A stretch of 64,000 nt of DNA from Candidatus Bathyarchaeota archaeon (GCA_963767735.1 CAVYES010000006.1:512001-576000), one strand, 5' to 3'. Numbered from the stretch's first letter, positions 10,242 through 61,130 are shown. Notes: generated by a model from the sequence alone, not told the origin. Numbers and translations are program-made.

Positions 10242-10510
10242 TAGCCAAAGCTCCAGGTTACCTATGCTTGATTAAATTTGTAATAAATCAGTTATGAATC
10301 TCAAATACTGATTGCAGGTTGCTTCAATTTTCATCAAATGAAAAATGCTCGTTGTTTGCGTTTTGATTTGTTGAGTTGATTTTACGCTCTTTTATGAAAA
10401 CTCAGACATAATCCACTTTACTGGTAAAAACTTGTGGGCTGATTTTCAGAAATATTGGTAAATAAGCTACGACTGCGCCTATTTAGCAAAAATAACCTCG
10501 AAAATGGCTT
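10153..10510. repeat. 358 bp apparently identical direct repeat, copy 1 (partner 16466..16823)
   Basis: By-eye alignment at offset 6313; covers kinase 5' end, promoter and att arm. Confidence 0.85.
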
Positions 10511-10559
10511 GCGAAAAAGCGGCGGGAGGGCGATAATAGCCCCAATTTATTAGTAAAAA
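10417..10559 (-). repeat. tRNA-Ser att-like repeat A
   Basis: TTTACTGGTAAAAA box, arm, eroded core GCGGCGGGAGGGCGAT (10519-10534), eroded right box TTTATTAGTAAAA. Confidence 0.75.
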
Positions 10560-10676
10560 GCTTTTGAAGCCATTGCTAGCATACAGTCAACAAGCGCTAT
10601 AGGTACAAATCCCAGCGGCCTACCACTACACCAGAAGCTTTACAACTTTAACTTAGCAAGCAGCCTAAAACGAAAG

Positions 10677-11081
10677 CTACTTTATCTTTTCAATAGTTAC
10701 TTTGTCATCGTACTCTTGGAATGAAATTTTGAATAACTTAAAAAAATCGTATCTTCCTAATATATAGGGCACCTCATTGATCAAAGCCACTGCGATTTTC
10801 ACTTTTACCACGTTATCTTCAAGTCTAAAGCTAACATCCTGTAATGACAGTGGGACTATTGCTTCTCCTATGCCTCTGATTTGGCCTAAACAAGAGGAAA
10901 GGTCTAAGCCTAAAAGTGCCCCGAAATTCCTTGGAACAAGCGATATGTCTGCTCCCGAATCAATATACATAATCACTGGAAACCAATCACAATTTTCAGT
11001 TCCGATCTCCAACTGAGCAACAGGTCTGAGAATGTCTCCTAGAAGCCCTGATTTCTCTTTTCTGTAGACAAATTCAACCAA
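10677..11081 (-). CDS. Retropepsin-like aspartyl protease
   Basis: YIDSGADISL catalytic motif and ILGRYDF. Confidence 0.8.
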   Translation of the reverse strand: MVEFVYRKEKSGLLGDILRPVAQLEIGTENCDWFPVIMYIDSGADISLVPRNFGALLGLDLSSCLGQIRGIGEAIVPLSLQDVSFRLEDNVVKVKIAVALINEVPYILGRYDFFKLFKISFQEYDDKVTIEKIK

Positions 11082-11283
11082 TCAAGAGCACCAATGTATC
11101 TTCTCTCGGCACGAAAGCTAGAACAGGACGTTTCCCTGGACATTTCTTTTTGGCGCTTTCCCAAACTTCCTTTGGGTCGTATCCACTCGCCACCACTTTG
11201 TCTTCGACTATAGCAATATGTTTTCCACTGTACTTCTTGTTGATTTTATCTGCATTTGTCAGGTAGAAACTGAGTTCTTTCAT
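11074..11283 (-). CDS. DUF5678-like small protein coupled to the aspartyl protease gene
   Basis: KKYSGKHIAIVEDKVVASG pattern; overlaps the downstream start. Confidence 0.7.
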   Translation of the reverse strand: MKELSFYLTNADKINKKYSGKHIAIVEDKVVASGYDPKEVWESAKKKCPGKRPVLAFVPREDTLVLLIG

Positions 11284-11582
11284 AATGATACTTGAAGTAC
11301 AGGGATATATAAATCACTTTTTTGCAGGATCGTGCGTAACCTGAGCTGGAGCAATTTAGTAATACAAACCTTGGAGGGTCTTACGATCAGATATTCTCTT
11401 CCATGTTAACAGTACTGAAGGGGGTAAGGTAAACGTTAAAGGTTAATTCGCGCTACCCAGAATGAACCACTCTCCCATTGAATGTCTCTACTAAGAAGAA
11501 AATGGAAATGGCTTGATAGAAGAAGCAGAATTAGCGAAATCCCCCATATCTTGGTTTAAATTCCAGCAGCCTCTGTTGCTTG

Positions 11583-11726
11583 TTTTTACTGGTAAAAACT
11601 TTGCGCTGATTTCAGAAATTTCGTTGAACAAGCATAAATTGTGCTTATTTAGTAAAAATAACATCAAAACAGCCTGAAAAATTGGCGCCGGGAGGAGGCC
11701 CCCAGCACCTTTTTACCAGTAAAAAA
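11583..11726 (-). repeat. tRNA-Ser att-like repeat B
   Basis: TTTTTACTGGTAAAAA ... TGGCGCCGGGAGGAGG (11683-11698) CCCCCAGCAC CTTTTTACCAGTAAAAA. Confidence 0.85.
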
Positions 11727-12219
11727 TGGTTAGAGTGAGCTAGAACAGACTTGCCTCCAAACCAGGTTATGATTCCCTATCGTTAACTTACTTGCTTTTA
11801 GGTAAAAGAGGCTTTAGGCAAGTTCGCCGAGTTGCCGACCTGAACAGGTTCAAATCCACAATATATATGCAACGCTTTTTCAAAAATCAGCATTTCTTTT
11901 GCTTAACCCGGGTCCGAAAGGACTTGCGCTTCCAAAAGCACATTTACACTGTATCTTTTCTTTTTTTGATAAGTTAATTTATTTTTTTGTCATAAATTTT
12001 TCATAGACTAGTTTAGTCTAGCATTCCGCTGTCGACATTCACACTACAATTTTTGCGTTTTAGCGCTCCCTCTTTTATTGTTCAGTCAGGTTTTTACGCA
12101 TAATGGTTGTTACGCACAAGTTGTTAATACTGAATTTAGTCTTCCTGTAAAGCGGATTAAGTATGAGGCGTTCCAAAATAAAAAGTGGTGGATGTTAAGG
12201 CATAAGTTGGTGTACTTTC

Positions 12220-12588
12220 ATGGAGCTAATCCAGACAGTTAAAGACTTCGATAATCTTTTAGTTCAGGTTACCGAAGAAACAATCAAATACTGTTTAGGA
12301 GACGCAAATGCCACTATTATTTGGAATTATCTTGAAAAACGAAACTGCCCGATAACCGAAGTTCCAATCAGACCTGAAATTTTTTCGGAGGAACTTAGAA
12401 ATATAATGGGTTTTGGGAGACGACAGATTCTTGGGGCGGCGGCAATACTTGAGGAAACAATACTTGAAATATTTTATAAAAAGCTGGGAATCAACTTTGA
12501 ATGTGAAAAACCAATCAATTTTTCATACCAAGTTAGAAAATTACGTAATCAATACAAAACCGGAGACATACGGAGGTGGGAATTATGA
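12220..12588 (+). CDS. Small helical protein of the kind found beside archaeal receiver genes (DUF3227/NitrOD5-like)
   Basis: IKYCLGD..IWNYLE..PEIFSEELRNIMG..AAILEETI pattern; overlaps a REC gene. Confidence 0.55.
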   Translation: MELIQTVKDFDNLLVQVTEETIKYCLGDANATIIWNYLEKRNCPITEVPIRPEIFSEELRNIMGFGRRQILGAAAILEETILEIFYKKLGINFECEKPINFSYQVRKLRNQYKTGDIRRWEL

Positions 12589-13037
12589 CAATTGAAAAAT
12601 CCCGAATCCTAATTGTAGATGATGACAATGAGATAACCGAGTCTCTAAGTAGAGTGTTGGAATCTGAAGGGTACCGAACCGATGTAGCTCACACCGTAAA
12701 AGAGGCGATTGAAAAGTCTTACGAAAACGATTACAATTTGACAATTCTAGACATCAAGCTCCCGGATGGGGAAGGCACATGCATTCTAAAGTTGCTGGAG
12801 GAGATTTCGCCGAAGACGATGAAGATCATGCTAACTGGACACCCGATATTAGAAAACGCCGTTAATTCTTTGAATTATGGTGCAAATGCCTACATGATTA
12901 AGCCCGTAGATTTAGATTCCCTTTTAAAGACAATAAAAGACAAAATTGAAGAGCAGAGAGCTGCTGAAACAGCTACTGAAGAAAGTATCGCCATCTTTTT
13001 GCAAACCAGAACAAAAAAACTATTAACGATGAAATAG
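12576..13037 (+). CDS. Response regulator (receiver domain)
   Basis: ILIVDDD, LDIKLPD, LTG, KP motifs. Confidence 0.9.
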   Translation: MGIMTIEKSRILIVDDDNEITESLSRVLESEGYRTDVAHTVKEAIEKSYENDYNLTILDIKLPDGEGTCILKLLEEISPKTMKIMLTGHPILENAVNSLNYGANAYMIKPVDLDSLLKTIKDKIEEQRAAETATEESIAIFLQTRTKKLLTMK

Positions 13038-13053
13038 GCTATCCGCCAGAGAT

Positions 13054-13656
13054 TTGGAGTTGCATAAGAAAATGACTCAAGTAATTGGAAAAGAGGATAA
13101 ACCAACCAGAATATTAGTTGAAGAGGACATAAACATGAGAGCAACAGTAGATGCTGTCCTCAAGAAGAATGGGTACTGCATCAATCTTGCTGCTATCCAA
13201 AGCGAAACAGCAACGCGAACCGTTGATGTCCCATTTAATTCGGCTGTAAAAGATGATCGGTTTCCAGACGTGGAACGCATAACGCACTCGCTTCTAAAAG
13301 TTCAAGAAATCACGGAGGCTACTCACTTGCTTTGGCCAAACGAAAAAACCGCAACAAAAATAACCACTGATACCGTCGAAATCATAAATCAAGCTTGCAA
13401 GAAAAATTTCTCATTTTGCAACGGAAAAAGCTTAAAATGCCTAATGGGCGGATTATTCTATCTTCTAGGCTTCAGGTATGATGATCCAAAGAAACAAATA
13501 GAAATAGCATTCGTTCTTCAAATAACGGATGTCTCAGTAAGATCATCTTACAAAAGGTGGTTTAGAGAGTTTCCAGAGTTGTTTCAAAGCGCAATAACAA
13601 AGCTTCCGGAACAAGAGTTTCGTTGTCGTCGTTATCCTATTTCGCGTTCGCAATAG
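13054..13656 (+). CDS. Degenerate receiver fused to a TFB C-terminal cyclin-like domain
   Basis: N-terminal RILVEEDINMRATVDAVLKKNGY; C-terminal GKSLKCLMGGLFY..QIEIA..ITDVSVRSSYK resembles TFB GKDPMGLAAAALY..QKDIA..VTEVTVRNRYK. Confidence 0.55.
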   Translation: MELHKKMTQVIGKEDKPTRILVEEDINMRATVDAVLKKNGYCINLAAIQSETATRTVDVPFNSAVKDDRFPDVERITHSLLKVQEITEATHLLWPNEKTATKITTDTVEIINQACKKNFSFCNGKSLKCLMGGLFYLLGFRYDDPKKQIEIAFVLQITDVSVRSSYKRWFREFPELFQSAITKLPEQEFRCRRYPISRSQ

Positions 13657-13875
13657 CGGACTTCGCATAATGGACGGCTGGAAAAACGAAGTTAGTAAAT
13701 TAAATAACCAAGGGCCGATTCAAGACTTTTGATTAAATTTTGCACAAGCTACAGACGACGCGTTATTAAGTTTGTCCAATCAAACCGTGGCGGGTCATTT
13801 CAAGAAAGTGGCTCCTGGAATGGGTTTCATCCTTGAGTTTAGTAACTTTGGCAACTTAAAAAATATGGGAAAAAC

Positions 13876-16554
13876 TTATTGTGCAATTTGGTAGTTTTCT
13901 TTTCCATTATTGTTTAATTTTGGAATGATTATTGTGAATTTTGCTCCTTTACCCGGTGTACCGTTCTCTTGAATTTGCCAGCCGTAAACATCCATCATTT
14001 TTTTAGTCAAAAATAGCCCAAAGCCTGTGCTGCCTCCAGTGCTGAAACCCCCCGAGAAAAGACGCGGCTTATTCTCAAAAGGCACGCCTACTCCATCATC
14101 CTCATAAACCAACTTCAGGCTTTCTTGATCACCCCTTTCAAAGTACACTCTGATAGTTGTGGTTTTTTCACCGTATTTTCTTGTATTATCAATAAAATTA
14201 TAGAACATCTGCCTAAGAAAAGAATCCGCAAGCAATGTTAATCCGTGACATTCATTAATCATCTTTGGGACGGGCGCTGAAAAAAGAGCAGTTGCTTCCT
14301 TTAGTTTCTGTTCTGCATCAATGTAAGTTATTTCTTCCTCACCCATTTGTTCGTACATTTTGGCGAAATCGAAAATCCTAACAGTCTCTTTAATAGCGTT
14401 CTCTATCTTGCCTAAATCATCAACAATATCAGCCTGGTCACTATGCTTTTTCTTAAGCAAATAAGCATAACCATTTATCCCTGAAAGCTTGTTGCGGACG
14501 TCGTGCCTAGTTAAACTTCCAACCACTCGAAGTTTTTCATTTAATAGCCCGATTTTATCCAAACTATTCGACAACGATTCTAAAGAAAACGTCAAGTCAG
14601 CCTCTGTATTTTTTTGGTTGATAATGTCTGTAGCAATACTGGCCGCCCCAACAAATCCCCCGTCTTCATTGAAAATAGGTGTTCGATTTAAAATTACTGG
14701 CACCACTGACCCGTCTATGTTCTTATGTGAAATTTCAGTTGACCAGCTTTCACCCGCCCTTAACCTTTTAGTGGCTCCCTCTGCTTCTTCTGGTGAAGTA
14801 CCAAATAGATCAGTAACTTCGCGACCCAGTGCTTGTTCTTCTGACCAACCATAGAGTTTTTCTGCTGCTTTATTCCAAAAGCGAATTGTTCTGTTACTAT
14901 CCGCCATTATGACAGCTTGCCCAACGTGATTTAGCAAATCAGCCTGAAATTTAACGGATTCTTCAGTTTTCTTGCGTTCAGTAATGTCTTCGAATACGGC
15001 TGCAAAAAAACCTTTTCTCGGTGAATAAACTGAGACATTCAGCCAAATATTTAGGGGTTTGAAGAAAATTTCAAACTTTTCTTTTTGACCGGTGACTGCA
15101 ACTCGTCCGTAAATTTCAAAAAGCTCTGGAGTAGTCTCTTTAATTCCTGGTATTGCAAGAGTTACTTTTTTTCCGATAACTTTGTCTTTTTTCAAACCTG
15201 TTATTTGTTCAAATGCCTCATTAATTTGAAGATATACAAAATCATCAGGCTTTCCAGATGCGTCAAATATCATTTGGCAAAATGCAAAACCATCGATCAT
15301 GTTCGAGAAAAGAGAACTATAGTCTTCTTCACTTTTTCTTAACGTTCCCTCAAATTTCTTGAGTTCAGTAATGTCGCGTACAGTAGCCTGCAACACTTCT
15401 CGACCTTTCAGCGGCATTCTTGTTAAAAGTACGTCTGCAGGAAAAGTTGCACCATCCACTCGCTTGTGAATCCAGAAAAAGTGATCGGTACCTGCCTGAA
15501 AACCCTTTTTGATGTGACTCATGGCGGCGTCCATGGATGGTGTGCCGTCTGGTTGAGTTGGAGGAGACAAATCTGATGGATGAAACTTTGTAAACTCCTG
15601 CAATGACTTGCAGCCAAACAATCCGAGCGTAGCTTTGTTGCAGTCAAAAAAACCCTTCTCGTCAAGCAACATTAAAGCATCCATTGATGACTCGAACGTT
15701 GTTTGGTATTTCTCTTCGCTCTCCTTTAGCTTCTCTTCAGCTTCCTTGCGTTCACTGATGTCGATGATTGTTCCTTCTATTATTCCTTGTTCAGGGTAGA
15801 GCTTGAGTGAGGTTAGACAATTTCTGATTCCGTGATGTTTATGTAGCATTTTGCATTCGAAATCTTTAACATACCCGTTGGCTTGGAGCAGGCGAACCAT
15901 CTCTTGTCGCTTAAGTGGGTCAGCCCAAAAACTCGTCGAATGCTTTCCCCGCATTTCTTCACGGGTAAGACCAAAAATACTTAGATATTTCTCGTTGAAG
16001 TCAAGAATTTCAGACCCATCCAGCTTAGTTCTGAACATTCCCACTTCGGAGTTATTAAAAATATTCTGGTACTTTAACTCTTTATCAGTTAGCTCTCGTT
16101 TGGATTTCCAGTGTTCCACGCCTAGTTTCATGCCGTGGACAAGTTCGCCATAGACAGTCTCGGGATTGCCTTGCTTGTTGAAGTAACCGTCTGCGCCAAG
16201 GTTTAGTGCTTTTATGGCTACTTCTTCTCTTCCTTTTCCGGTGAACAAGATGAAAGGGATGTTATTGTTCTGTTTACGCAACTCAGTTAGGAACTCGAGG
16301 CCGTTTTTTTGGGGCATTTCATAATCAGAAATGACAACATCATATTGCCCCGTTGACAGTTTCTTGAGGGCTTCATCTACGCAACAAGCGTGGTCAATTT
16401 CGAAGTTGCCCATATCCATTAGGATTAGCTTTGAGATTTCGAGAATAGTTGGGTCATCGTCAACGTGCAAAATATGAATTATGTTCTTTTCGTTTGAAGG
16501 CTTTAAATTGGCCCCTTCGACGGTGACTCTGCACTCTTGTTCATACGTTTGCAA
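13876..16554 (-). CDS. REC-multiPAS histidine kinase
   Basis: Receiver, four PAS/PAC units (DITERK), RHDVRN H-box, EDDGVG and GFGL ATPase motifs. Confidence 0.92.
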   Translation of the reverse strand: MQTYEQECRVTVEGANLKPSNEKNIIHILHVDDDPTILEISKLILMDMGNFEIDHACCVDEALKKLSTGQYDVVISDYEMPQKNGLEFLTELRKQNNNIPFILFTGKGREEVAIKALNLGADGYFNKQGNPETVYGELVHGMKLGVEHWKSKRELTDKELKYQNIFNNSEVGMFRTKLDGSEILDFNEKYLSIFGLTREEMRGKHSTSFWADPLKRQEMVRLLQANGYVKDFECKMLHKHHGIRNCLTSLKLYPEQGIIEGTIIDISERKEAEEKLKESEEKYQTTFESSMDALMLLDEKGFFDCNKATLGLFGCKSLQEFTKFHPSDLSPPTQPDGTPSMDAAMSHIKKGFQAGTDHFFWIHKRVDGATFPADVLLTRMPLKGREVLQATVRDITELKKFEGTLRKSEEDYSSLFSNMIDGFAFCQMIFDASGKPDDFVYLQINEAFEQITGLKKDKVIGKKVTLAIPGIKETTPELFEIYGRVAVTGQKEKFEIFFKPLNIWLNVSVYSPRKGFFAAVFEDITERKKTEESVKFQADLLNHVGQAVIMADSNRTIRFWNKAAEKLYGWSEEQALGREVTDLFGTSPEEAEGATKRLRAGESWSTEISHKNIDGSVVPVILNRTPIFNEDGGFVGAASIATDIINQKNTEADLTFSLESLSNSLDKIGLLNEKLRVVGSLTRHDVRNKLSGINGYAYLLKKKHSDQADIVDDLGKIENAIKETVRIFDFAKMYEQMGEEEITYIDAEQKLKEATALFSAPVPKMINECHGLTLLADSFLRQMFYNFIDNTRKYGEKTTTIRVYFERGDQESLKLVYEDDGVGVPFENKPRLFSGGFSTGGSTGFGLFLTKKMMDVYGWQIQENGTPGKGAKFTIIIPKLNNNGKENYQIAQ

Positions 16555-16823
16555 TAGCCAAAGCTCCAGGTTACCTATGCTTGATTAAATTTGTAATAAA
16601 TCAGTTATGAATCTCAAATACTGATTGCAGGTTGCTTCAATTTTCATCAAATGAAAAATGCTCGTTGTTTGCGTTTTGATTTGTTGAGTTGATTTTACGC
16701 TCTTTTATGAAAACTCAGACATAATCCACTTTACTGGTAAAAACTTGTGGGCTGATTTTCAGAAATATTGGTAAATAAGCTACGACTGCGCCTATTTAGC
16801 AAAAATAACCTCGAAAATGGCTT
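16466..16823. repeat. 358 bp direct repeat, copy 2 (partner 10153..10510)
   Basis: By-eye identity, ending just before the tRNA-derived core. Confidence 0.85.
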
Positions 16824-16874
16824 ACAAAAAATGGCGACGGGAGGGGGATCCCAGCACCTTTTTACCAGTAAAAA
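16730..16874 (-). repeat. tRNA-Ser att-like repeat C
   Basis: TTTACTGGTAAAAA ... ATGGCGACGGGAGGGGGAT (16831-16849) CCCAGCAC CTTTTTACCAGTAAAAA. Confidence 0.88.
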
Positions 16875-17295
16875 TGAATTTTTGAATGTGTTTCTTGAAG
16901 GAGCGGGTTCGATGGGACCAAACTAGGTGTTAAGCTTAGTACTGCCCGCCTAATTTTGGAAGAGCACAGTGATTTATTTCATTTCTTTTTTATCTCTGCT
17001 TCCAGTCCTTTTTACTTTTGTTTTTCGTTTGGTTTTCTTTTTTCTCGTTAGCAGGTTTGTTTTTCGTTTTGCTTTTTATTTTTATTTCCCTCCTTATTAT
17101 AACTCTCCTCCATGCTTATCCGCTTTGCCTTCCGCCCCCGATTCGTTGACCGCTCAAGTGAGTAATGCTGAGAATGCAGTAGTTTATCTCTTAAGAAAGT
17201 GGAAAGCTTTAAGGAAAACTGCCCATAATATTTATTGCGGAATTTGCACAGAAACTTCATTAGTTTCTTATGTTAAAGGCGCTATAATCTTATTC

Positions 17296-17946
17296 ATGCC
17301 CAATTATTCCAAGAAGTCATTGCTAACTGCTAGCGACGAAGAATACTCAATGTTAATTGAGGTTAGTGAAGAATTTGAAAAACAAAAAACCGACAAAACA
17401 GCCCTCGAAAAATCTGGAACTGCAACAGAATTAGTCATACGCAATCACCTCATTAAGAGAAACCTTAATCTTTCAATGATTCCAAACGTCACAATTCAAG
17501 GATCAAAGATAAAAAATGATCTGCTTCTTTTAAAAGGCGACATAGACCCAAACCAAAAAAACTTCCCGACTACCAGTGTGAAGATGATAATAGAGATTAA
17601 GAACAACGCTGTCGGTGGTAAAATTTTGAAGAACGGAAAGCGGGAAGACCCTAACAAGGTGCTGCGCGCTAAATTCAGTGAGCTTGAAGGAACTACCAAT
17701 GTGAGGAATTTTGGTGTTATCGTTCTTTCTGAAACGCTACTTCCACCAAGAGGTCCTTACAAATGGCGATTTAAAGAAGAGGCGATAGGAAAAGAAAACT
17801 GCAAAGTCTTTACCTTAGTTGCCCGTCAGCTTTATCCTCCTGGCGGACTCTACATCAAGTCCAGCATAATAGAAATGCTTCAAAATGAGCAGATGAAAAA
17901 AACCGGAGAATTTCAACAGCTGATCAATTATCTTCAGAATTTGTAG
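17296..17946 (+). CDS. Putative PD-(D/E)xK nuclease-fold protein
   Basis: E..KNDLLL..MIIEIKNN motif; likely start MPNYSKK at 17296, as the upstream part of the ORF call is low-complexity. Confidence 0.5.
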   Translation: MPNYSKKSLLTASDEEYSMLIEVSEEFEKQKTDKTALEKSGTATELVIRNHLIKRNLNLSMIPNVTIQGSKIKNDLLLLKGDIDPNQKNFPTTSVKMIIEIKNNAVGGKILKNGKREDPNKVLRAKFSELEGTTNVRNFGVIVLSETLLPPRGPYKWRFKEEAIGKENCKVFTLVARQLYPPGGLYIKSSIIEMLQNEQMKKTGEFQQLINYLQNL

Positions 17947-21590: not shown

Positions 21591-21604
21591 GCAATATCGA
21601 CTAA

Positions 21605-37346: not shown

Positions 37347-37348
37347 GC

Positions 37349-53336: not shown

Positions 53337-53375
53337 TTCATAATTTTTATGAACAAATCTCAATTACGTTTAAAT
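53337..53375 (+). promoter_or_regulatory. glnA promoter: TTCATA-N5-TATGAA palindrome/box, 9 bp, TTTAAAT
   Basis: Box 53348-53359, TATA 53369-53375. Confidence 0.7.
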
Positions 53376-53427
53376 GTATTCATCTCTCATTTTGCTAAAC
53401 AAATAATCTGAATAAATGGTGAAATAA

Positions 53428-54894
53428 ATGGAAAAAAATGATTCAGTGAAAAAAGCTAAAGAGAGCCTAAAAAGCAACAACATAAGGTGGGTGCATTCTG
53501 CCTTCGTTGATATTCGTGGAATACTGCAAGACATGGTGCTTCCAGCAAGGGATTATCTTAGCGGCGAAGCATTTACTGCAGGAATAGGTTTTGACGGTTC
53601 TTCTGTTAGAGGATTTAAATCCATTGAAGAATCAGACATGATTTTCATGCCTGACGCAAAAACACTATCTATAATGCCTTGGGTCACAGACGAAAAACAA
53701 AAAAGCGCCATAATTCTCGGAGACGTCTACGAAGCCTTCGGAGGAAAAGAGCCATCAGTCGTTGACCCGAGAAGTTTCGTTGCAAAAAGAGCGGTAGCAG
53801 AAGCCAAAGCAATGGGTTACACAGGATTCTTTGCGCCTGAACTCGAGTTCTTCGTCTTTTCCTCAATCGATCCAACTAAGCTAACTTGGGATCTTTGGGC
53901 CGCCCCAAAAAGCGGTGAAGGAGACGCATGGGGAGCACCAAGAGTCGTACCAAACTCGCCAGAAATCACTCCAGGCGGATTTGTCATGCGACCCAAAGAA
54001 GCATACTACCGAACCCCGCCAGAAGACACCACTGTTGAGTTCAGAAACGAAGTTTGCCAAGTTCTAGACGACAACTTTGGCTTAACTATTGAGAAACATC
54101 ACCACGAAGTAGCTACAGTTGGTCAAGTAGAAATCGACTACAAATACGGCCAACTCGTGGAAACTGCAGACAGGGCGCTTTACTATAAATTCGTAGCAAA
54201 AAACATAGCTCATAATCGCGGATTAATAGCCACATTCATGCCTAAGCCAATCTACTTAGACAACGCTAGTGGTATGCACGTTCATCAATCAATTTGGTCA
54301 GGTGGAAAAACTGCCATGTATGATGAAGCTGACGACTACGCTGAACTGAGCCAAATCGGCAGATACTATATTGGTGGATTGCTTGAACACGCCCGAGCTC
54401 TAACAGCCGTTTGTTGTCCAACCGTAAGCTCCTACAAACGTTTAGTGCCCGGTTTCGAAGCTCCAATCTACGTGCTATGGTCTCGACGCAACCGCTCCGC
54501 TTTAGTCCGCGTACCATTGTATTACAAAGGACCGGAATTTGCTGCTCAAAAACGTGTCGAATATCGAGGTGCTGATCCATCATCCAACCCGTACCTGGCA
54601 TTTGCCTGCCTTTTAGCGGCTGGGCTCGATGGTGTTAAAAAGAAACTTGATCCTGGCGACCCTGTGGACGAAGACGTTTACAAACTCTCTGCCGGAAAAC
54701 GCAAAGAACTTGGTATAAAAGAGTTGCCTACAACACTAAAAGAAGCGTTAGAGGAACTCAAAACCGATGAAGTCCTTCAGCGAACACTTGGAAGCCACAT
54801 TTTCGACGCATTTATCGAGCTTAAAACAAACGATTGGAACCAGTACTGCCTCTACGTGTCACCTTGGGAAATAATGAAATACCTCGACTACTAA
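53428..54894 (+). CDS. glnA: Glutamine synthetase type I
   Basis: FDGSSVRGF, PELEFF, HHHEVA, ATFMPKP, SGMHVHQS, YKRLVPGFEAP, NRSALVRVP, NPYLA. Confidence 0.97.
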   Translation: MEKNDSVKKAKESLKSNNIRWVHSAFVDIRGILQDMVLPARDYLSGEAFTAGIGFDGSSVRGFKSIEESDMIFMPDAKTLSIMPWVTDEKQKSAIILGDVYEAFGGKEPSVVDPRSFVAKRAVAEAKAMGYTGFFAPELEFFVFSSIDPTKLTWDLWAAPKSGEGDAWGAPRVVPNSPEITPGGFVMRPKEAYYRTPPEDTTVEFRNEVCQVLDDNFGLTIEKHHHEVATVGQVEIDYKYGQLVETADRALYYKFVAKNIAHNRGLIATFMPKPIYLDNASGMHVHQSIWSGGKTAMYDEADDYAELSQIGRYYIGGLLEHARALTAVCCPTVSSYKRLVPGFEAPIYVLWSRRNRSALVRVPLYYKGPEFAAQKRVEYRGADPSSNPYLAFACLLAAGLDGVKKKLDPGDPVDEDVYKLSAGKRKELGIKELPTTLKEALEELKTDEVLQRTLGSHIFDAFIELKTNDWNQYCLYVSPWEIMKYLDY

Positions 54895-54921
54895 GCATCA
54901 AAGCAAAAAGCAGGATTAAAC

Positions 54922-55908
54922 ATGGCACCAGATACATCATGAATATGAGAAGCTACTGCCAGAAATCCGAACGACTAACAGATGAAGTCGTCAAACAAAA
55001 CATGGCTGACGGAATCCTGTTCTCAGCTGGAATACGACACAAGCATAATTGCCTACCATGCAGTCAAATACAAACCCAAAATCCCCGCTTTGACCATGGC
55101 TTTTAAGCATGGCCACCCAAAAGACACCGAATACGTTAAAAAAATGGTGGATTTCCTTCACCTTCAACATGAATTCCACACTTTTGACCGCGAAGACGTA
55201 CTGACTTCAGCTGAAAAAATCGTTCAGGTTCTTAAGATTTTTGATCCCATGGAAATAAGGAATGCTGTTTCAGTTTACATCGGCTTAACTATCGCAAAGA
55301 AAAAAGGAATTAAAAGCGTTTTCACCGGAGACGGAGTGGATGAGCTATTTGGTTATCCTTGGATGTGGAGTCTATCTGAAGCTGAATTAACCAAAAAATT
55401 CAAAGACATGTGGGGAGAAATGGGTTTCTCTTCAATTCCCATGGGCAAATCCTTAGGTGTTGAAGTAAAGCCGCCTTTTCTAGACCCATTGTTCATGGAT
55501 TACGCAAAGAAGCTGCCCAACAAACTGAAAATCAACGAAGAAAACGGCGTAAAATACAGCAAATGGATCCTTCGCAAAGCATATGAAGATTTGATTCCTA
55601 AAGAAGTGATTTGGCGACCCAAAGCACCTTTGGAGCAAGGAACTGGCACCACGGCTCTTCAGCATTACTTCGATAAGCAACTTTCCGACAAAGATTTTGC
55701 AGAGCGCAAAAAACAAATCCTTGAGAAAGACGACGTTGTAATAACCAGCAAAGAGCAACTGATTTTACTATGACTTCTTCCGAAAACACTTCGCAAAACC
55801 ATCAAGCGTCTACAAGGAAAAGATAGGCAGGCAATGTCCCAACTGTAAAAGCTACGTGAAAACAGAGCTTGGGATTCTGCAAAGTATGCGGAAACATATC
55901 CCATCTAA
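54922..55908 (+). pseudogene. Asparagine synthetase C-terminal-domain protein with Zn-ribbon tail; several frameshifts
   Basis: GILFSAG / DTSIIA split across frames, TGDGVDELFGY, KWILRKA; CPNC..CKVCG tail in other frames. Confidence 0.75.
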
Positions 55909-55966
55909 TTTCCTTTTTTCATATTTACTTAAAATAATGGTTTAAGGTATTTTGCGGTTGGAGATT

Positions 55967-57637
55967 ATGTGCGGAATAGTTGGGATTTTTAACATAATCT
56001 GAGCCAGTGCCTCAAGCAAGAGACAAAGCACTGCGAATGGCAACTAAAATAAGGCATAGAGGACCCGACTGGAGCGGCATCTACAGCGACGACAAAGCAA
56101 TTCTTGCACATGAACGGCTCTCCATCGTTGACGTTGAACATGGAGCACAACCATTATTTGACAAAATCAACGGCAACGTTCTTGCTGTAAACGGCGAAAT
56201 TTACAACCACATGCTTCTTCGAAGCGAACTTAAGAAGGAGCATTTGTGGCAGACAAAATCAGACTGCGAAGTAATCCTGTACCTCTACGATGAGTACGGT
56301 CCAGACTTCCTAAACATGCTAAACGGCATGTTCGCCTTCATACTATACGATAAGAAAAAAGGACAGTACTTCATTGCAAGAGACCACATCGGGATCATTC
56401 CGCTGTATGTCGGCTGGGATGACAAAGGAACTTTTTATGTCGCCAGCGAAATGAAAGCCCTAAATGACTATTGTACGACTGTCAAAGAGTTCCCTCCAGG
56501 ACATTATCTACTGGGCAATGGGAAAGATTTCGTTAGATGGTATAAGCCTGAGTGGGCGGAGAAAATTCCAACAAAGAAACTAGTTCTCGCAGACCTGAGA
56601 AAGGCATTGGAGAAATCTGTAAAGGGACAAATGATGTCTGACGTTCCCTATGGTGTTCTTATCTCGGGAGGATTGGATTCTTCGTTGATAGCTGCTATCG
56701 CTTCGAAGTTCAGGAAGAAAAGGGTTGAATCTGGCGACAAAGAAGAGGCATGGTGGCCACGTTTGCACTCATTCGCTGTAGGCTTAGCAGATTCGCCTGA
56801 TTTGAAATACGCCAATAAGGTTGCCGACTACATTGGAACTGTGCATCATGAAATAATTTTCACTATACAGGAAGGTTTTGACGCGATACGGGATGTCATT
56901 TATCATTTGGAAACATTTGATGTTACCACTATTCGTGCCGCTACTCCCATGTATTTGATGGCTAGAAAAATAAAATCCATGGGCATCAAAATGGTCTTAT
57001 CCGGTGAAGGCGCAGACGAAGTCTTCGGCGGATACCTTTATTTCCACAAAGCACCAAATAAACAGGAATTCTACGAAGAAACCGTAAGGAAGCTATTCTT
57101 GCTAAGCAAATACGATTGCCTTCGAGCAAACAAAGCAACTGCTGCTTGGGGTGTTGAAACCCGAGTGCCATTTTTAGATAAGGAGTTTTTGGATTTTGCC
57201 ATGGGCTTTGACCCTCAAGAGAAAATGTGCTCGGGTGACAAAATCGAAAAGTATGTATTAAGAAAGGCGTTTGAAGGCTACATTCCTGAAGAGATTCTTT
57301 GGAGGCAAAAAGAACAGTTCTCCGACGGGGTCGGTTACGGATGGATAGATTATCTCAAAAAATACGTTGAAAGCGCGGTAACAGATGAAATGATGGCGAA
57401 CGCTAAAAGTAAGTTCCCTCTCAAACTCCGTCATCAAAAGAGGAGTATTATTACAGGCAGATATTTGACGGCTACTTCACCTGCCCCACTGCAGCATTAA
57501 CCGTTCCGGTAGGTCCAACAATTGCCTGTTCCACCCCTACAGCCTTTAGATGGAGCAAAGAATTTGCAAAAATGGCTGACCCTTCAGGCAGATCCGTTAA
57601 AGAACACAACCAAACGTTAAACGAAAGCAAGAAATAA
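55967..57637 (+). pseudogene. asnB: Asparagine synthetase B, frameshifted near both ends (possibly sequencing errors)
   Basis: MCGIVG at 55967 is out of frame with HRGPDWSG; SGGLDSS, SGEGADE; IACSTP..DPSGR continues in another frame after ~57420. Confidence 0.85.
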
Positions 57638-57842
57638 TAATCCAAACTTTAATTGGTACATGCATGGTTGATTCAGATTTTCCTTTCGAATTAATTGCTT
57701 CTAGAAACTATAAACTCCTAAGAATCGCATGTATTTCGTTTTTTCTGATTTTTCCATAGAATCTAATTTCATTTTGTCGACCAATAGTTAAAAAACAAAA
57801 AATGGTTTGAAAGATTTTGTTCTAGGCAACTGGCCTTTGAAA

Positions 57843-58085
57843 CTACATTGGTGATAGTACAATGGAGGTTTCTGTTCGGATTACGCTGGGGTCTTTTTCA
57901 ATTATCTTGTAAACAACTTGGTTTATGTCTTCAAGTGCTGGAGCTTCTAAAACTATTATTGCATCGTATCGACCGAAGATTGCGTCGGCAGATACTATGC
58001 AGGTCTCCTTGACTTTTTCTTTTATTTTCTTAACAACGTCCAAGGATGTGCCGGGTTTAGTGCTTAAGAGTATATAGGCTTTCAA
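57843..58085 (-). CDS. Stand-alone Lrp/AsnC ligand-binding (RAM) domain
   Basis: KAYILL..PG..ADAIFGRYDAI..RTETSIV. Confidence 0.85.
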   Translation of the reverse strand: MKAYILLSTKPGTSLDVVKKIKEKVKETCIVSADAIFGRYDAIIVLEAPALEDINQVVYKIIEKDPSVIRTETSIVLSPM

Positions 58086-58201
58086 TTTTTTTTCCTCTTT
58101 TTCTTTTTGCTTGTTTAGGTTTAAGCTTAACAGTATTAACGTGTTATTGCATATAAATTTTCTGTTTTGATTTAGACGTATGTCGAGTATTTATGAAAAA
58201 T

Positions 58202-58229
58202 TATGAACAAATCATAACTATATTTATAT
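58202..58229 (+). promoter_or_regulatory. Box-N9-TATA promoter of the 32 aa peptide gene
   Basis: TATGAACAAATC ATAACTATA TTTATAT. Confidence 0.7.
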
Positions 58230-58272
58230 TTAGCTGAGCAAGTAAATAAGTATACAATAAAATGGTGAAAAT

Positions 58273-58371
58273 ATGTTTGGAATAATTGATTTAGTATCGA
58301 TAGCGACAATCATCGGGTCATTTGCCTTCATAGGGTACAGCATCAAGTTAGAACTCAAAATCAAAGTGTAA
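58273..58371 (+). CDS. 32 aa single-TM peptide (MFGIIDLVSIATIIGSFAFIGYSIKLELKIKV)
   Basis: GGTGA RBS, promoter, and a duplicated copy at 52939..53039. Confidence 0.65.
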   Translation: MFGIIDLVSIATIIGSFAFIGYSIKLELKIKV

Positions 58372-58598
58372 CACAAAACTCGGGCAACAGCGCGGCTAGT
58401 CTTCGGTGATGAGGTTCTTATCACATTACTGATAACCTAATACACGCTTCCTAAAATGACGCACAAATGAATATCCCACTGATTCTGTTATTTTAATAAT
58501 AACGCGGCTGTGGGATACAACCGCTATTTTTTTGGTTCTTAATCTTGCAGATTCCTCAAAAGGAAAGAAAAGAGAAGGAGAAATGATTTTTCCATGAT

Positions 58599-58760
58599 CT
58601 ATATTTTCTTTTTTCCCAATGTTGTTCTGAAGGTTTTGCCGCAGCATTCGCAAAGACCGATTGTCAGTTCTGTTCTTTTTCCTGTTTTGTCTGGTCTACC
58701 CGCCATCTTCCAAGTCTTTTTTGGAGCAACTTCTTTTCCACATTTGGGACATTTCGCCAT
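58599..58760 (-). CDS. Cren7-like chromatin protein with Cys pairs
   Basis: PKKTWKMA..TIGL..GKTFR aligns with Cren7 PEKVWALA..KIGLF..GKYFR; GAGG RBS. Confidence 0.7.
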   Translation of the reverse strand: MAKCPKCGKEVAPKKTWKMAGRPDKTGKRTELTIGLCECCGKTFRTTLGKKKI

Positions 58761-59025
58761 TTTACATTCCTCATCAGAGCATTGAAACCATGCTCTATAA
58801 ACGCTTTTTGTAGAAAAGTGCAATTCTCATAAAGATCGATAAGCTTCAATCAATGGTTGCTAGTCAGTTATTTTGTATTTTTTTAATCAATCATGCTCTT
58901 CGCTTTTGTTCCAAAATCGACGACATATTCGTGGGTCCAAACCCGAAAATACATAGGTCTCTATGGTACTTGAACCAGAAACGGTTCAGAACCTTTATTG
59001 GGTTGCCCAGGTCCACTTTCGCTTA

Positions 59026-59171
59026 TTTTTTACTTGTAAAAATTTTCGCTGAGATTTCAGAAATTTTCGACAAATAAGGTGTAATTGAGACTATATAGCT
59101 AAACTAGCCTCAAAAACTGCCCTAAAAAAAGCGCCGGGAGGAGGATACTAGCACCAATTTACCAGTAAAAA
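59026..59171 (-). repeat. tRNA-Ser att-like repeat G
   Basis: TTTTTTACTTGTAAAAA ... GCGCCGGGAGGAGGAT (59131-59146) ..GCAC.. TTTACCAGTAAAAA. Confidence 0.85.
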
Positions 59172-59289
59172 TAGAGAGAAAAAGTAAGTCGTTGTATCTT
59201 TGTTTTTGTGCTTTCCAAAAGCTATTTAGAGTATAGCGAGACATAATTAAATCAGTATTTTCTCTTTAATTACAGTTGGTTACCCGACT

Positions 59290-60741
59290 ATGCGCAAGAA
59301 AAATAGTGTTGGGCGGAATCTTGTTGATAAATACCGTACTTATGTAGAAAGCTCGCCTGTTGCTTTTTTCATTATTAATCCCGAAAGTAAATATGTCGAG
59401 GTAAATGATGCTGCTTGTAGATTGGTTGGTTATTCCAAAGAAGAACTTTTAGAAAAAACTGCTTCAAATCTTGTGTTTGAAGAAGACATTCCATTAGCGC
59501 GAAAACATCATTCCAAGTTAAAAGAAACGGGAAAGTCTGTTACAGAGTTTAGGCTAAAGAGAAAAGATAGGCAACCTGTATATGTTATTTTAAACGCAAC
59601 GCAGTTGCCTGATGGAAATTTAATGGCTTTCTGTGAAAACATAACTGAACGCAAGAAAGCTGAAGACGCTCTTTTGGAAAGTGAGGTGAAATATGAGCAG
59701 CTTGTTGATAGGTTACCTGAAATGGTTTTTGAAATCGACCTCACTGGGCATGTTTCTTTTGCTAATTTGAGGGCAGTTGAGATTTTGGGTTATTCGAAGG
59801 CTGAGCTTGAGGATGATTTTGATGCTAATCGTCTTGTCGCGGCTGATGATGTCGCGCGTTCGAAGGAAAATATGAGATTAATGTTTGATAGAGGCATACG
59901 CCAGAGTTATGAATACATTTTCGTTAAAAGGAATGGGGAGCGTTTTCCTGTTTTATTGAATAGTGAGCCGATTATAAAAAATAACAAGATTGTTGGGGCT
60001 AGGGGAATTGTCATTGACATAAGTGAACGTAAGGATATGGAGAAGAGGCTTCAAGAACAAGAACGTTTGGCCGCTATAGGCACTACGGCAGGCATGGTTG
60101 GACATGATATTCGTAATCCCTTGCAAGCTATGACTGGCGACGTTTACTTAGCCAGGGCGGAATTAGTTCATACTCCTCAAAGTAAAGAGAGAAAAAATGC
60201 GTTGGAGAATTTGCAAGAGATTGAACAAAACATTGATTACATCGATAAGATTGTCGCTGACCTCCAAGATTTTGCTAGAATTATCTATCCGAGCGGTAAA
60301 AAAACAGACTTAGTGAGCCTTTTCAAAGAAATTCTACTGAAAAACAACTTACCAGCCAGCATCAAGGTTTTTTGCAAAGTAGACAAAGCTGCCAAACTTG
60401 TGTTTGTTGACCCTGAGTTACTAAAAAGAGTTTTAAGTAATTTAGTGCTAAACGCGGTTCAAGCGATGCCTGAGGGCGGAGAACTTTCTGTTAGGGCTAT
60501 TATCAAAGATGGAGGCTTTGTTATTGAAGTTAAAGACACAGGTGTGGGAATACCTGAAGATGTTAAAACTAAAATATTTACTCCTATGTTCACCACCAAA
60601 GCTAAGGGTCAAGGATTCGGATTGGCAGTTGTGAAACGGTTAACTGAAGCGATGAATGGAACTGTGGCTTTTGAAAGTGAACAAGGTAAAGGAACCAAAT
60701 TCACGGTACGATTGCCCAATAAGAAGATAAATGGCGACTAA
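59290..60741 (+). CDS. PAS-PAS histidine kinase
   Basis: GHDIRNPL H-box, NLVLNAVQA, DTGVGI, GFGL. Confidence 0.93.
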   Translation: MRKKNSVGRNLVDKYRTYVESSPVAFFIINPESKYVEVNDAACRLVGYSKEELLEKTASNLVFEEDIPLARKHHSKLKETGKSVTEFRLKRKDRQPVYVILNATQLPDGNLMAFCENITERKKAEDALLESEVKYEQLVDRLPEMVFEIDLTGHVSFANLRAVEILGYSKAELEDDFDANRLVAADDVARSKENMRLMFDRGIRQSYEYIFVKRNGERFPVLLNSEPIIKNNKIVGARGIVIDISERKDMEKRLQEQERLAAIGTTAGMVGHDIRNPLQAMTGDVYLARAELVHTPQSKERKNALENLQEIEQNIDYIDKIVADLQDFARIIYPSGKKTDLVSLFKEILLKNNLPASIKVFCKVDKAAKLVFVDPELLKRVLSNLVLNAVQAMPEGGELSVRAIIKDGGFVIEVKDTGVGIPEDVKTKIFTPMFTTKAKGQGFGLAVVKRLTEAMNGTVAFESEQGKGTKFTVRLPNKKINGD

Positions 60742-61015
60742 ACCCCATAGCTGGCGACCCCGTTTGGAAACCGAACTCTAAACATGATATCAGAAATTGA
60801 ACTGGAGATAGGCATCCAACTCGAAGTAAAATTTCCTACATGTCTGCGGGCAAAAAAGTTGCTCGCATTCAAATTTCTTGGATTCCTCTTATTGTCGATG
60901 AACTAATGGCCTCTGCTTTTGCAAGATTTCAAATGTAGCAAAAGACTAATTTAAATAGAGTTTAGCTATTTAATTTTAGACAAAATAAGCTCAAAAATAG
61001 CTCCAACTGGTAAAA

Positions 61016-61130
61016 TGGCGCCGGGAGGGGGATTTGAACCCCCGAGGCCCCGAGAGGCCACAAGCTGCTTGGTGCTTGCCTTAGGCAAACATCTCCAGGC
61101 TTGCTCCCTGCCTGGCTAGGAGACCCCGGC
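61016..61130 (-). tRNA. tRNA-Ser(GGA) with 26 nt intron at 37/38 (61067..61092) and encoded CCA
   Basis: GCCGGGG/TCCCGGC acceptor stem, CAAGC/GCTTG anticodon stem, long variable arm, GGTTCAAATCC T loop, relaxed BHB motif. Confidence 0.93.

Follow-up and report, generated by a model that had tools for sequence, protein, structure and literature searches.

Organization of the tRNA-Ser(GGA) locus

The window analyzed here is a DNA stretch of 64,000 nucleotides from a soil Bathyarchaeia archaeon with a genome of 3.04 Mb. On the minus strand is a gene for tRNA-Ser(GGA), which contains a 26-nt intron and encodes the CCA; the array described below lies on the side of its 3′ end, at 61016. The gene scores 34.4 bits with Rfam in E-value mode and is also called by ARAGORN with option -i, while the 26-nt intron causes it to be missed by default ARAGORN and by Rfam at the gathering threshold. 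The last 18 nt of the gene are found in seven further copies, upstream in window coordinates, all in the orientation of the tRNA, and in no other part of the genome. As the gene is on the minus strand, the 18-mer on the plus strand is the reverse complement of the tRNA 3′ end, including the CCA. The features of the region, in order of position, are:

10395-10563, plus strand: unit A, full (left box, arm, decayed core at 10519-10536, decayed right box; profile)
10564-11562: cassette A-B, two small minus-strand genes (DUF5678 and an aspartyl-protease-like protein)
10566-10626, plus strand: degenerate tRNA-Pro-like pseudogene, opposite in orientation to the Ser core (printed sequence read directly)
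11563-11729, plus strand: unit B, full, core at 11683-11700 (18-mer search, profile)
11730-16707: cassette B-C, 122-aa protein, response regulator, TFB-like C-terminal protein, hybrid PAS kinase
16708-16877, plus strand: unit C, full, core at 16832-16849 (18-mer search, profile)
16878-25902: cassette C-D, nuclease-like 325-aa protein, TFB, HTH regulator, flavodoxin-like protein, membrane protein, response regulator
25903-26012, plus strand: unit D, core at 25968-25985, right half-site and box; left arm of the tRNA-flank type
26013-44868: cassette D-E, glyoxalase, ADH, nested 7.5-kb element, beta-propeller protein, MPG glycosylase, DUF488, VapBC, Arc/HicB-like protein
31810-39357, plus strand: nested integrated element between direct repeats of 20 nt (31810-31829 and 39338-39357; 13 nt exact), carrying a tyrosine recombinase
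44869-44912, plus strand: unit E, without left arm; core decayed, right half-site present, right box perfect (profile, adjoining box)
44913-45655: cassette E-F, HicB-like/DUF7387 gene and HicA
about 44919-44979: tRNA-Pro-like pseudogene after unit E
45638-45666: Pro-like 3′ fragment ahead of unit F
45656-45823, plus strand: unit F, full, core at 45777-45794, without the CCA complement (18-mer search, profile)
45824-59005: cassette F-G, Lrp/AsnC, amino-acid permease, P-type ATPase, glnA, asnB pieces, AsnC-like protein
59006-59174, plus strand: unit G, full, core at 59129-59146 (18-mer search, profile)
59175-60855: cassette G-tRNA, PAS-HisKA-HATPase kinase
60856-61015, plus strand: 3′ flank of tRNA-Ser(GGA), left arm of type 2, with homology to the arm of copy D
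61016-61130, minus strand: tRNA-Ser(GGA) gene (Rfam in E-value mode; ARAGORN -i)

With up to 3 mismatches, the 18-mer is found at six places on the plus strand (11683, 16832, 25968, 45777, 59129 and the tRNA itself), compared to a chance expectation of 0.01, and none of 100 shuffled sequences reaches six. Two copies are weaker, that at 10519 with 4 mismatches over the 18 nt and 2 over the inner 16, and that at 44869 with 5, and both are backed by an adjoining box and by the profile search. A profile of the unit of roughly 170 nt matches copies A, B, C, F and G at full length (E values of 1e-43 to 1e-47), and all five lie in this window when the whole genome is scanned; partial copies are found at D, E and the tRNA-Ser(GGA) flank. 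An earlier note on this DNA had proposed seven co-oriented repeats of the tRNA-Ser end, and the 18-mer search, the shuffles and the profile agree that they are real. Its positions hold as well, except that 45779 and 59131 become 45777 and 59129. The core spacings (1.2, 5.1, 9.1, 18.9, 0.9, 13.4 and 1.9 kb) are those that it had listed.

Most of the cassettes in the window are unrelated to one another. Their genes lie on both strands, and the cassettes of 5-19 kb hold several genes. Cassettes of 0.75-1.1 kb that contain a single gene or a single toxin-antitoxin (TA) pair are bounded on each side by a complete site. The cargo recognized by Pfam includes kinases, TA modules, TFB and the nitrogen genes glnA/asnB, as had been claimed. 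Cassette A-B is 87% identical to a segment adjoining a full unit in another genome (L107), the gene set of B-C is that of the single tRNA-adjoining cassette in the relative G052, and D-E is partly common to the relative G057.

Architecture of the repeated site

The site reads, on the plus strand, half-site GGCGCCGGGA, a 7-bp overlap GGGGGAT, inverted half-site CCCAGCACC and box TTTTTACCAGTAAAAA. The first half-site corresponds to the acceptor strand and part of the CCA of the tRNA, and the overlap to the T stem. The inverted half-sites are imperfect, and their arrangement around a spacer of 6-7 nt is legible directly from the sequence. The junctions of two cassettes found in several genomes (the DnaJ and VapBC cassettes, see below) map to GGGGGAT. 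These sequence features support a reading of the copies as putative tyrosine-recombinase-type sites, derived from the 3′ end of tRNA-Ser(GGA). The copies behave as tRNA-3′-end recombination sites that partition the region, as the earlier note had it.

The box is palindromic and 16 bp long. The left arm, of about 110 nt, is present in five copies in the window and in many copies overall, and carries a second, inverted box as well as an internal palindrome. The arms are AT-rich and non-coding. In the window, the left arm with its box is seen in A, B, C, F and G, exactly the copies for which it had been noted before. Copy D and the tRNA-Ser(GGA) flank have a second type of arm in common; the homology of D to this flank begins near 25744, and the flank has a half box ACTGGTAAAA that abuts the core directly. 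The boxes would serve as arm-binding sites for the recombinase.

Several copies show the box between two divergent tRNA-like pieces. The Pro-like pseudogene at 10566-10626 is located just to the right of the right box of A, and the 3′ part of the pseudogene occurs again at 11550-11574, which places this second repeat on both sides of cassette A-B.

The runs of T and the palindromes in the unit, together with the box between tRNA-like pieces, would also suit units that function in cis or encode small RNAs (as terminators, promoters, origins or tRNA-like RNAs) and that selection maintains between blocks of genes. The units have no matches in Rfam, however, and no consensus fold was obtained with RNAalifold from 16 units (-1.64 kcal/mol, 3 pairs). 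The palindrome of the arm is kept without covariation, and the units hold no fixed position relative to the neighboring genes. Such a function is therefore very unlikely to account for them. A folded attC site was likewise rejected, as there is no conserved fold and the inverted half-sites are of the double-strand type.

Comparison with relatives and metagenomes

The 5′ flank of tRNA-Ser(GGA) is conserved in the relatives, with an Fe-ADH-like gene at 8 of 8 loci and FKBP26 at 7 of 8 (78-94% amino acid identity). In contrast, the 3′ side is hypervariable, from 0 to about 73 kb: nothing is inserted in G018, one 5.2-kb cassette is found in G052, and other arrays are present in G013, G019 and G057. 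Inserted DNA is thus present or absent between relatives while the flanks stay conserved. The 3′ end of tRNA-Ser(GGA) acts as the primary attachment site of the array. Arrays that do not adjoin this tRNA are found in G001, G002 and G010.

A query with unit F has matches in 11 of 24 congeners. Co-oriented arrays are seen in about half of the congeners searched and also in metagenome contigs, the pattern being matched by 14 genome and 54 metagenome stretches. Among adjacent units on 27 sequence pieces, 37 of 39 pairs are co-oriented.

The same cassettes recur elsewhere, cut at the core. The DnaJ cassette (1.08 kb) is found in six contexts with 95-98% identity, and the DNA outside the shared ends is unrelated. 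Its homology starts at one and the same base (|GGGGGAT...) in all six contexts and ends at ...GGGGAT| in four of them. The VapBC cassette (0.85 kb, 87-89% identity) has the same end structure in 3-4 of its 5 contexts. The left partner of the DnaJ cassette lacks an acceptor-like half-site in 4 of 6 contexts, which is unexpected for strict site-by-site recombination and could reflect secondary sites, later deletions or a one-ended mechanism. Of 212 unique ends of internal homology, 30 are located within 60 nt of a core, compared to 0.97% of the bases. Moreover, a pirin block of 1.16 kb is 96% identical between the arrays of G010 and G057, while the core genes of G010 are 67-78% identical to those of G000, a close relative of G057. 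Array content moves between distant species. Among the Logan contigs, low-share ones only, no core-to-core joints were found.

Not all synteny breakpoints coincide with the cores, which is a point against accretion by site-specific recombination. In the comparison of the window with G057, only about 4 of 10 breakpoints are at units and the rest are elsewhere, and two of the four are at the center of the left box rather than at the core.

These two breakpoints, the mutually inverted boxes at the ends of the unit and the four DnaJ left junctions that abut DNA unlike the site are what a MITE or other transposon-derived repeat of about 170 bp might show, with the boxes as terminal inverted repeats and the tRNA fragment present by chance. 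Against this, full units occur nowhere in the genome outside one 50-kb stretch and are not scattered in both orientations, the printed flanks of the units show no target-site duplications, no transposase was found in the window, and the core is the 3′ end of the neighboring tRNA. A transposon origin was rejected on these grounds, and we regard it as most improbable.

A different question is raised by units A and C, the left sides of which are 100% identical over about 370 nt. The adjoining kinase genes are paralogues with 71-89% identity. The identity between A and C shows that duplication or conversion has built part of the array as well. The repeated accretion of cassettes that the earlier note proposed is supported in part by the site-derived, variable and recurrent cassettes, but a part of the array has to be assigned to this other process. 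It is quite improbable, on the other hand, that the array arose mainly by segmental duplication and homologous recombination between existing repeats, with no site-specific enzyme. The A/C identity halts about 8 nt short of the core, most cassettes have no relationship to each other, and cassettes shared with other arrays end at one base in a 7-nt stretch with unrelated DNA beyond.

Search for the recombinase

No integrase was found within the array by Pfam on 78 ORFs of the window or by a six-frame search with PF00589. The window has a single recombinase, a divergent tyrosine recombinase encoded at 34973-36559 within the nested 7.5-kb element; that it belongs to a nested element had been recognized before. 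The direct repeats of this element differ from the core of the array, and the element is absent at the same place in G057.

The search was extended with tblastn, using 14 own integrases and the P0002 family against 107 loci (1.14 Mb). There is one full-length match outside the nested element, and it is of the 5′-end-targeting type. The earlier note had suggested looking for an integrase gene next to the same box, and no intact one stands beside a unit in the 107 loci; near units in L024, L038 and L103 there are only integrase remnants of 25-64 aa. Among the PF00589 matches listed for congeners with both features on one contig, none is within 60 kb of tRNA-Ser(GGA), several of the tRNA-Ser contigs being very short. 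The search linked no recombinase to the site. Two candidate families do not co-occur with the units. P0002 is present in 6 of 40 congeners. A family of 481-508 aa is present in 26 of 40, and the unit-bearing G002, G010, G013 and G018 are without it.

The remnants raise the possibility of ordinary decay. Each interval would descend from an autonomous plasmid, virus or island that joined a tandem at tRNA-Ser(GGA) and has since lost its integrase, possibly one of the self-splitting SSV type, and the repeats would be leftover attL/attR hybrids with no ongoing traffic. Archaeal and bacterial elements are known to reuse a tRNA site in tandem and to leave decayed remnants (PMC6563490; bioRxiv 10.1101/2020.12.28.424599). 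In G002, a 64-aa C-terminal integrase remnant is located 115 nt from a unit, on the side of the left arm, and its reading frame runs across a tRNA-Pro-like fragment, as is characteristic of a split integrase. The short fragments near units in L038 and L103 point the same way, as do the two deletion-like breakpoints at the left box, the expected place of an integrase gene. However, no unit in the 107 loci has an intact integrase beside it, and the judgeable congeners have none adjoining tRNA-Ser(GGA) among the matches listed. The cassettes of 0.75-1.1 kb with one gene or TA pair are complete at both ends, and base-exact ends in 5-6 contexts are not a product of independent decay. Decay on its own is accordingly an unlikely history for the array.

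Proposed mechanism

The array probably arose by site-specific accretion and exchange of integrase-less cassettes at tRNA-Ser(GGA), with a recombinase acting in trans and with later remodeling. The repeats, their orientation and confinement to the locus, the architecture of the site, the variability of the locus, the base-exact ends of cassettes elsewhere and the passage of array content between distant species are direct observations. The class of the enzyme, a circular intermediate, the action in trans and the part played by the boxes are what we infer from them.

Each cassette starts on its left with the right half-site and box, and closes on its right with the left arm and acceptor half-site. 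In the proposed mechanism, this layout would result when a circle with one complete site crosses over, within the overlap, with the tRNA or a site already resident in the array. Fresh cassettes would enter at the tRNA and older ones would be pushed outward. The recombinase, most likely a tyrosine recombinase, would be encoded outside the array and act in trans. Remodeling would follow through decay and deletions, through duplication or conversion as in A and C, and through the nested insertion of other elements.

A stronger version is conceivable, and we offer it tentatively. This genus of Bathyarchaeia may have a dedicated integron-like cassette system built on a tRNA, in which small integrase-less circles each carry a mimic of 45-170 bp of the tRNA-Ser(GGA) 3′ end, and in many cases a pseudo-tRNA 'landing pad' next to it. 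The circles would be captured at the tRNA or at resident sites by a tyrosine recombinase encoded elsewhere. They would move about within arrays and pass from species to species, and TA pairs would stabilize the arrays.

Comparison with known systems

CALINs are clusters of attC sites without an integrase. CIMEs (cis-mobilizable elements) are products of site-specific accretion next to ICEs of streptococci. IMEX elements rely on the Xer recombinase of their host, XerA, and integrate at the chromosomal dif site. IMEs are reviewed in PMC5704250. CIMEs and IMEX resemble the present cassettes in being att-flanked segments that lack a recombinase of their own, stacked in tandem and served by an enzyme in trans (which would apply here by inference). 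The site here is a tRNA end, in contrast to dif or an ICE att site.

Gene capture by a self-splitting integrase of the SSV type (She et al. 2001) would account for integrated DNA at tRNA genes with no working integrase, and one split-integrase remnant is found by a unit in G002. In contrast, no int(N)/int(C) halves were found at the seven copies in the window, and the arms are AT-rich, palindrome-bearing and non-coding. Capture by such 'suicidal' archaeal integrases is treated in PMC7253208.

The tycheposon islands of Prochlorococcus are tandem tyrosine-recombinase elements at tRNA genes (bioRxiv 10.1101/2020.12.28.424599), and arrays of archaeal integrated elements are noted in PMC6563490. 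As in tandem arrays of the tycheposon type, partial tRNA repeats stand at the junctions, the newest insertion is by the intact tRNA with older ones outward, and the island varies between relatives and contains decayed remnants. In contrast, no element of the arrays examined has an integrase, the units are as small as one gene or TA pair, and each junction has a complete conserved site, with the same cassette found base-exact in several genomes.

Integrons have been reported in Archaea (bioRxiv 10.1101/2022.02.06.479319; PMC9668308), and CALINs are named in PMC7923331. Integrons and CALINs share with this locus the arrays of small cassettes, each bringing a recombination site along, a crossover that falls within a short conserved core, the TA cassettes, the arrays with no neighboring integrase and, here, the presence of the same cassette in different arrays. 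On the other hand, the site is of the double-strand type, with inverted half-sites copied from a tRNA end, rather than a folded attC. No intI is found by the entry site in the array and the judgeable congeners, among the PF00589 matches listed. The genes run both ways, many cassettes have several genes, and no common promoter is evident. A classical integron was rejected, with no integrase at the primary site and no hairpin attC, and the 'integron-like system' of the earlier note is not established by these comparisons, which show no integrase by the tRNA in the relatives examined and no conserved fold.

Implications

Bathyarchaeia are abundant and uncultured, and their acquisition of genes is almost uncharted. 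This locus is a sequence-defined entry point, with a candidate recombination site of about 48 bp and a mapped 7-bp crossover. It also offers natural cassettes that recur between genomes, including DnaJ, VapBC, HicAB, kinases and genes for nitrogen assimilation. If the trans recombinase is found, the system would be a second, independently evolved route to cassette arrays besides integrons, and a possible genetic tool for archaea. Otherwise, it is a well-resolved tRNA integration hot spot that has shaped about 2% of the genome.

The tRNA-Ser gene and its repeated copies

The genome (G000) has 3.04 Mb in 10 contigs, with 43% G+C; the window covers 512001-576000 of its contig C6. No tRNA was found in the window by ARAGORN at default settings or by Rfam at the gathering threshold. 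Once introns are allowed, ARAGORN places a minus-strand tRNA-Ser(GGA) gene at 61016-61130, interrupted by an intron of 26 nt, and Rfam in E-value mode calls it too (34.4 bits). The 18-mer that recurs across the window therefore corresponds, as the reverse complement, to the last 18 nt of this tRNA, including the CCA.

The earlier note had described these repeats as lying in the orientation of the tRNA, and the search bears this out. With at most three mismatches, the 18-mer is found at 11683, 16832, 25968, 45777, 59129 and 61016, all on the plus strand, against a chance expectation of 0.01. Two decayed copies, at 10519 (4 of 18 positions mismatched) and 44869 (5 of 18), both have an adjacent box, a palindromic motif. 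The copies other than the tRNA end itself mark seven units, labeled A to G by position, and cassettes are named by the units that bound them.

A profile built from units A, B, C, F and G was searched against the whole genome. The full units of ~170 nt are these same five (E values 1e-43 to 1e-47), while D, E and the flank of the tRNA-Ser(GGA) gene itself are partial. Three further pieces with a core (the mimic of the tRNA 3′ end) and a box are located elsewhere in the genome.

Core-plus-box pieces elsewhere in the genome
Contig C4, 201904: beside a tRNA-Arg(TCG) fragment
Contig C6, 413567: 1.7 kb from tRNA-Pro(TGG)
Contig C8, 247226: a 27-nt fragment of the other serine tRNA, Ser(CGA), then a box-like motif

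Organization of the unit

The full unit consists of two boxes, an arm and two half-sites around a central overlap.

Elements of the full unit, in order on the plus strand
1: left box TTTTTACTGGTAAAAAC
2: AT-rich arm, ~105 nt
3: half-site GGCGCCGGGA
4: GGGGGAT
5: half-site CCCAGCACC
6: right box TTTTTACCAGTAAAAA

The 10-nt stretches on either side of GGGGGA(T) are imperfect inverted repeats, and the left and right boxes are mutually inverted. The arm contains an internal palindrome, AAATAAGC..GCTTATTT. A second type of arm is present in D, in the tRNA flank and in some units of relatives, where a half box abuts the core to give a nearly symmetric site of ~48 bp.

No consensus fold was obtained for 16 units from seven genomes or contigs (-1.64 kcal/mol, 3 pairs), which favors a putative double-strand protein-binding site over an RNA or an attC-like hairpin. 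A structured RNA or attC-like fold also has no Rfam support, and the arm palindrome, kept in 81% of cells compared with 31-52% for shifted partner columns, shows no covariation.

In many units, a tRNA-Pro/Arg-like 3′ fragment precedes the left box, and the right box is followed by ~65 nt of degenerate tRNA-Pro-like sequence directed away from the Ser core. Imperfect direct repeats of the Pro-like end flank the small cassettes A-B and E-F. These repeats suggest that some of the cargo may have entered at a neighboring pseudo-tRNA, through a different recombinase.

Arrays in other genomes

Unit F, used as a DNA query, matches 11 of 24 congeners and one of 16 genomes of other families. The core-plus-box pattern is found in 14 stretches of one-genome-per-species contigs and in 54 of metagenome contigs. 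Among the 27 pieces with at least two units, the intervals between units range from 0.74 to 18.9 kb, and 37 of 39 neighboring pairs are co-oriented. This co-orientation, together with the confinement of full units in the whole genome to the window, speaks against a MITE. Two pattern scans of viral contigs gave no matches, and no episome bearing the site was found there. The small intervals each hold a single gene or a TA pair.

Small cassettes (L numbers are examined loci, G numbers other genomes)
G057 and G013: PIN and antitoxin
L066: VapB and a downstream ORF, by eye a probable PIN protein
Window E-F: HicA and a HicB-like gene
Window A-B: DUF5678 and an aspartyl-protease-like gene
L025: DnaJ

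The tRNA-Ser locus in relatives

A search for the tRNA-Ser(GGA) gene succeeded in 38 of the 40 congeners. In eight fetched loci its 5′ side is conserved, with an Fe-ADH-like gene in all eight and FKBP26 in seven (78-94% amino acid identity); there is no conservation on the 3′ side.

In G018, DNA homologous to 499296-499786 of contig C6 in G000 comes within 12 nt of the tRNA, cutting short a small pilin-like ORF, and G000 therefore has up to ~73 kb that is absent from G018. The cut ORF (~19700-19806 in L019/L020, contig C13 of G018) resembles the result of a deletion, one of whose ends is next to the core. The encoded CCA is missing from the G018 tRNA-Ser gene, and likewise from copies F and G of the window.

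The closest genome of the fetched set, G052, has a single cassette of 5.2 kb with the gene set of B-C. Its proteins are 49-80% identical to those of B-C, and those of the flanking genes ~90%. The stretches that G057 has in common with the window are 89-94% identical in nucleotide sequence. This genome retains the DNA left of the array as far as the left box of unit A, as well as parts of cassette D-E. Missing are 16 kb between A and D and a nested 7.5-kb element, and other cassettes adjoin the tRNA. About four of the ten breakpoints between the window and G057 are at units, two of them at the center of the left box.

Cassette ends and transfer between species

A DnaJ cassette of 1.08 kb is found with 95-98% identity in six contexts (L025, L048, L026, L065, L092 and L023). 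At its left end, homology starts at the first G of GGGGGATCCCAGC in all six. Beyond this base the flanking DNA is unrelated, with an acceptor-like half-site in only two of the six left flanks. At the right end, the sequence is common up to ...GGGGAT in four, beyond which right half-site, box and flank vary; the remaining two diverge 75 nt sooner and have no unit there. A VapBC cassette of 0.85 kb (87-89% identity in L066, L025, L031, L107 and L027) follows the same logic, with the right half-site and box traveling at its left end and the right end closed by its own flank plus TGGCGCC.

In a survey of megablast matches over all pieces (at least 85% identity over at least 400 nt), 212 unique internal ends were counted. 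Of these, 30 are no farther than 60 nt from a core; the share of bases that close to a core is 0.97%. DNA beside a full unit in contig C16 of G057 matches cassette A-B at 87% identity. The arrays of G010 and G057 have in common a pirin-containing block (96% identity), compared with only 67-78% identity between the neighboring core genes of G010 and those of G000. The ends of this block are gene borders with no core; it is evidence of transfer and not of a precise cassette. Together, these comparisons place the putative crossover in the 7-bp GGGGGAT and show that the content of the array moves between species.

The nested element

The nested element (31810-39357, ~7.5 kb) is bounded by a 20-nt direct repeat, with the copies 7528 nt apart, and is absent from the same place in G057. 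Repeated GTGTGCAAT motifs are located at its left end. Its cargo includes the gene for P0002 (529 aa, 34973-36559), a MazE-like gene, and unknown plus-strand genes with strong AT skew. The protein encoded at 33101-33997 has no match in Pfam, NCBIfam, PHROGs, PDB sequences or the Atlas.

No Pfam match of its own was found for P0002. One of 12 aligned relatives matches PF00589 (E value 4e-6), and R270, H423, K427, H428 and Y459 are invariant in the alignment. The predicted structure (mean pLDDT 74) matches the integron integrase 2a3v (E value 3.5e-5), XerA 5hxy and other tyrosine recombinases. These three lines of evidence identify P0002 as a divergent tyrosine recombinase. As the earlier note had proposed, the only recombinase of the window thus lies inside an element with different bounding repeats. 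The record of an identical P0002 protein on a contig of 7576 bp suggests that the element also has a free circular form; several relatives are on contigs of ~7-7.7 kb.

Search for the integrase

No integrase was found in the window by Pfam (78 ORFs) or by a six-frame PF00589 search. No intact integrase is located beside any unit in 107 loci (1.14 Mb, tblastn with 14 integrases of the genome and the P0002 family). Among the 150 PF00589 matches listed for 40 congeners, none is within 60 kb of tRNA-Ser(GGA), several of the tRNA contigs being short and 36 further matches unlisted.

Beyond P0002, the genome has two further groups of integrases and a type associated with tRNA 5′ ends. The first group has a common KLFRKRK-like tail, and its genes face a tRNA 3′ end in convergent orientation. 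In G002, a 64-aa remnant of such an integrase is found 115 nt from a unit, on the side of the left arm, and reads through a tRNA-Pro-like fragment; the stretch contains a stop codon. In L024 (contig C6 of G002, 9300-9790), a terminase-like ORF ends ahead of a tRNA-Pro-like fragment, after which comes an in-frame C-terminal integrase remnant; the arrangement resembles a split-integrase provirus junction.

The second group (481-508 aa) has a tRNA-Pro-like 3′ fragment 45-55 nt downstream, and in one case a box-like motif as well. It is present in 26 of 40 congeners and was not found in the unit-bearing genomes G002, G010, G013 and G018. Relatives of P0002 are present in only six of 40 congeners, and their distribution does not track the units. 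Both families were candidates for the enzyme of the units; neither co-occurs with the unit-bearing genomes. A 505-aa integrase (G000:C5:137933-139366) is 99% identical to that at G052:C5:949677-951110, with flanking core proteins at ~90%, suggesting a recently shared mobile element.

The third type, located at tRNA 5′ ends, belongs to other elements. Its genes are directly upstream of the tRNA on the same strand (G000:C4:206549-208272, G000:C7:305904-307286, and L021 14903-16426), the tRNAs being Arg-TCG, Arg-TCT and, in G022, Pro-GGG. In C4, a 20-nt copy of the tRNA 5′ end is present 31.8 kb away (C4:238406-238425), suggesting elements directed to this end of tRNA genes. Nothing in G000 is closely related to the single integrases of G018, G043 and G004 (at most 38% identity).

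Other repeats and genes in the window

A ~124-nt repeat family is found on both sides of the array (2377-2448, 5051-5174 and 61258-61729). Most of the 29 matches of a tRNA-to-FKBP query to G057 fall on the part that holds this repeat, which may be a dispersed intergenic element. The glnA-asnB block lies between inverted repeats of ~220-300 bp (52934-53157 and 58155-58376), parts of which are 97-100% complementary, with shorter related motifs at 46342, 49251 and 53329. These repeats could be a shared regulatory region or bound an invertible segment. A fragment of asparagine synthase (54982-55773) adjoins a full-length copy (56007-57500). The beta-propeller gene (39334-40494) has tandem 126-nt repeats at 39392-40282, read as probable blade repeats of an NHL/YNCE-like protein. 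A PAS histidine kinase is apparently split into two ORFs (7253-7921 and 7974-10238); G052 and G013 have a single ORF of ~1000 aa.

Relation to known systems and proposed mechanism

Logan contigs of four runs, compared with 42001-62000, are short and have no core-to-core joint. Such runs cover no more than 0.18 of the sampled words, and the missing joint does not count against mobility. A limited literature search gave no account of cassette arrays derived from a tRNA in Bathyarchaeia, which is no proof of absence.

At the level of cassettes, the array resembles integrons and CALINs. However, an adjacent integrase, a folded attC, and co-oriented promoterless cassettes were each tested for and not found, and the array is therefore not a member of the integron family. 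In its mode of working, it is like the tandem tRNA islands described in PMC6563490 and bioRxiv 10.1101/2020.12.28.424599.

Duplication or conversion contributed to the array as well, as shown by the 100% identity of units A and C along ~370 nt, which stops ~8 nt from the core. Deletions and nested elements have changed it further. The best-supported reading is that site-specific recombination at a tRNA-Ser-derived site would have built the array, by accretion of cassettes that have no integrase of their own.
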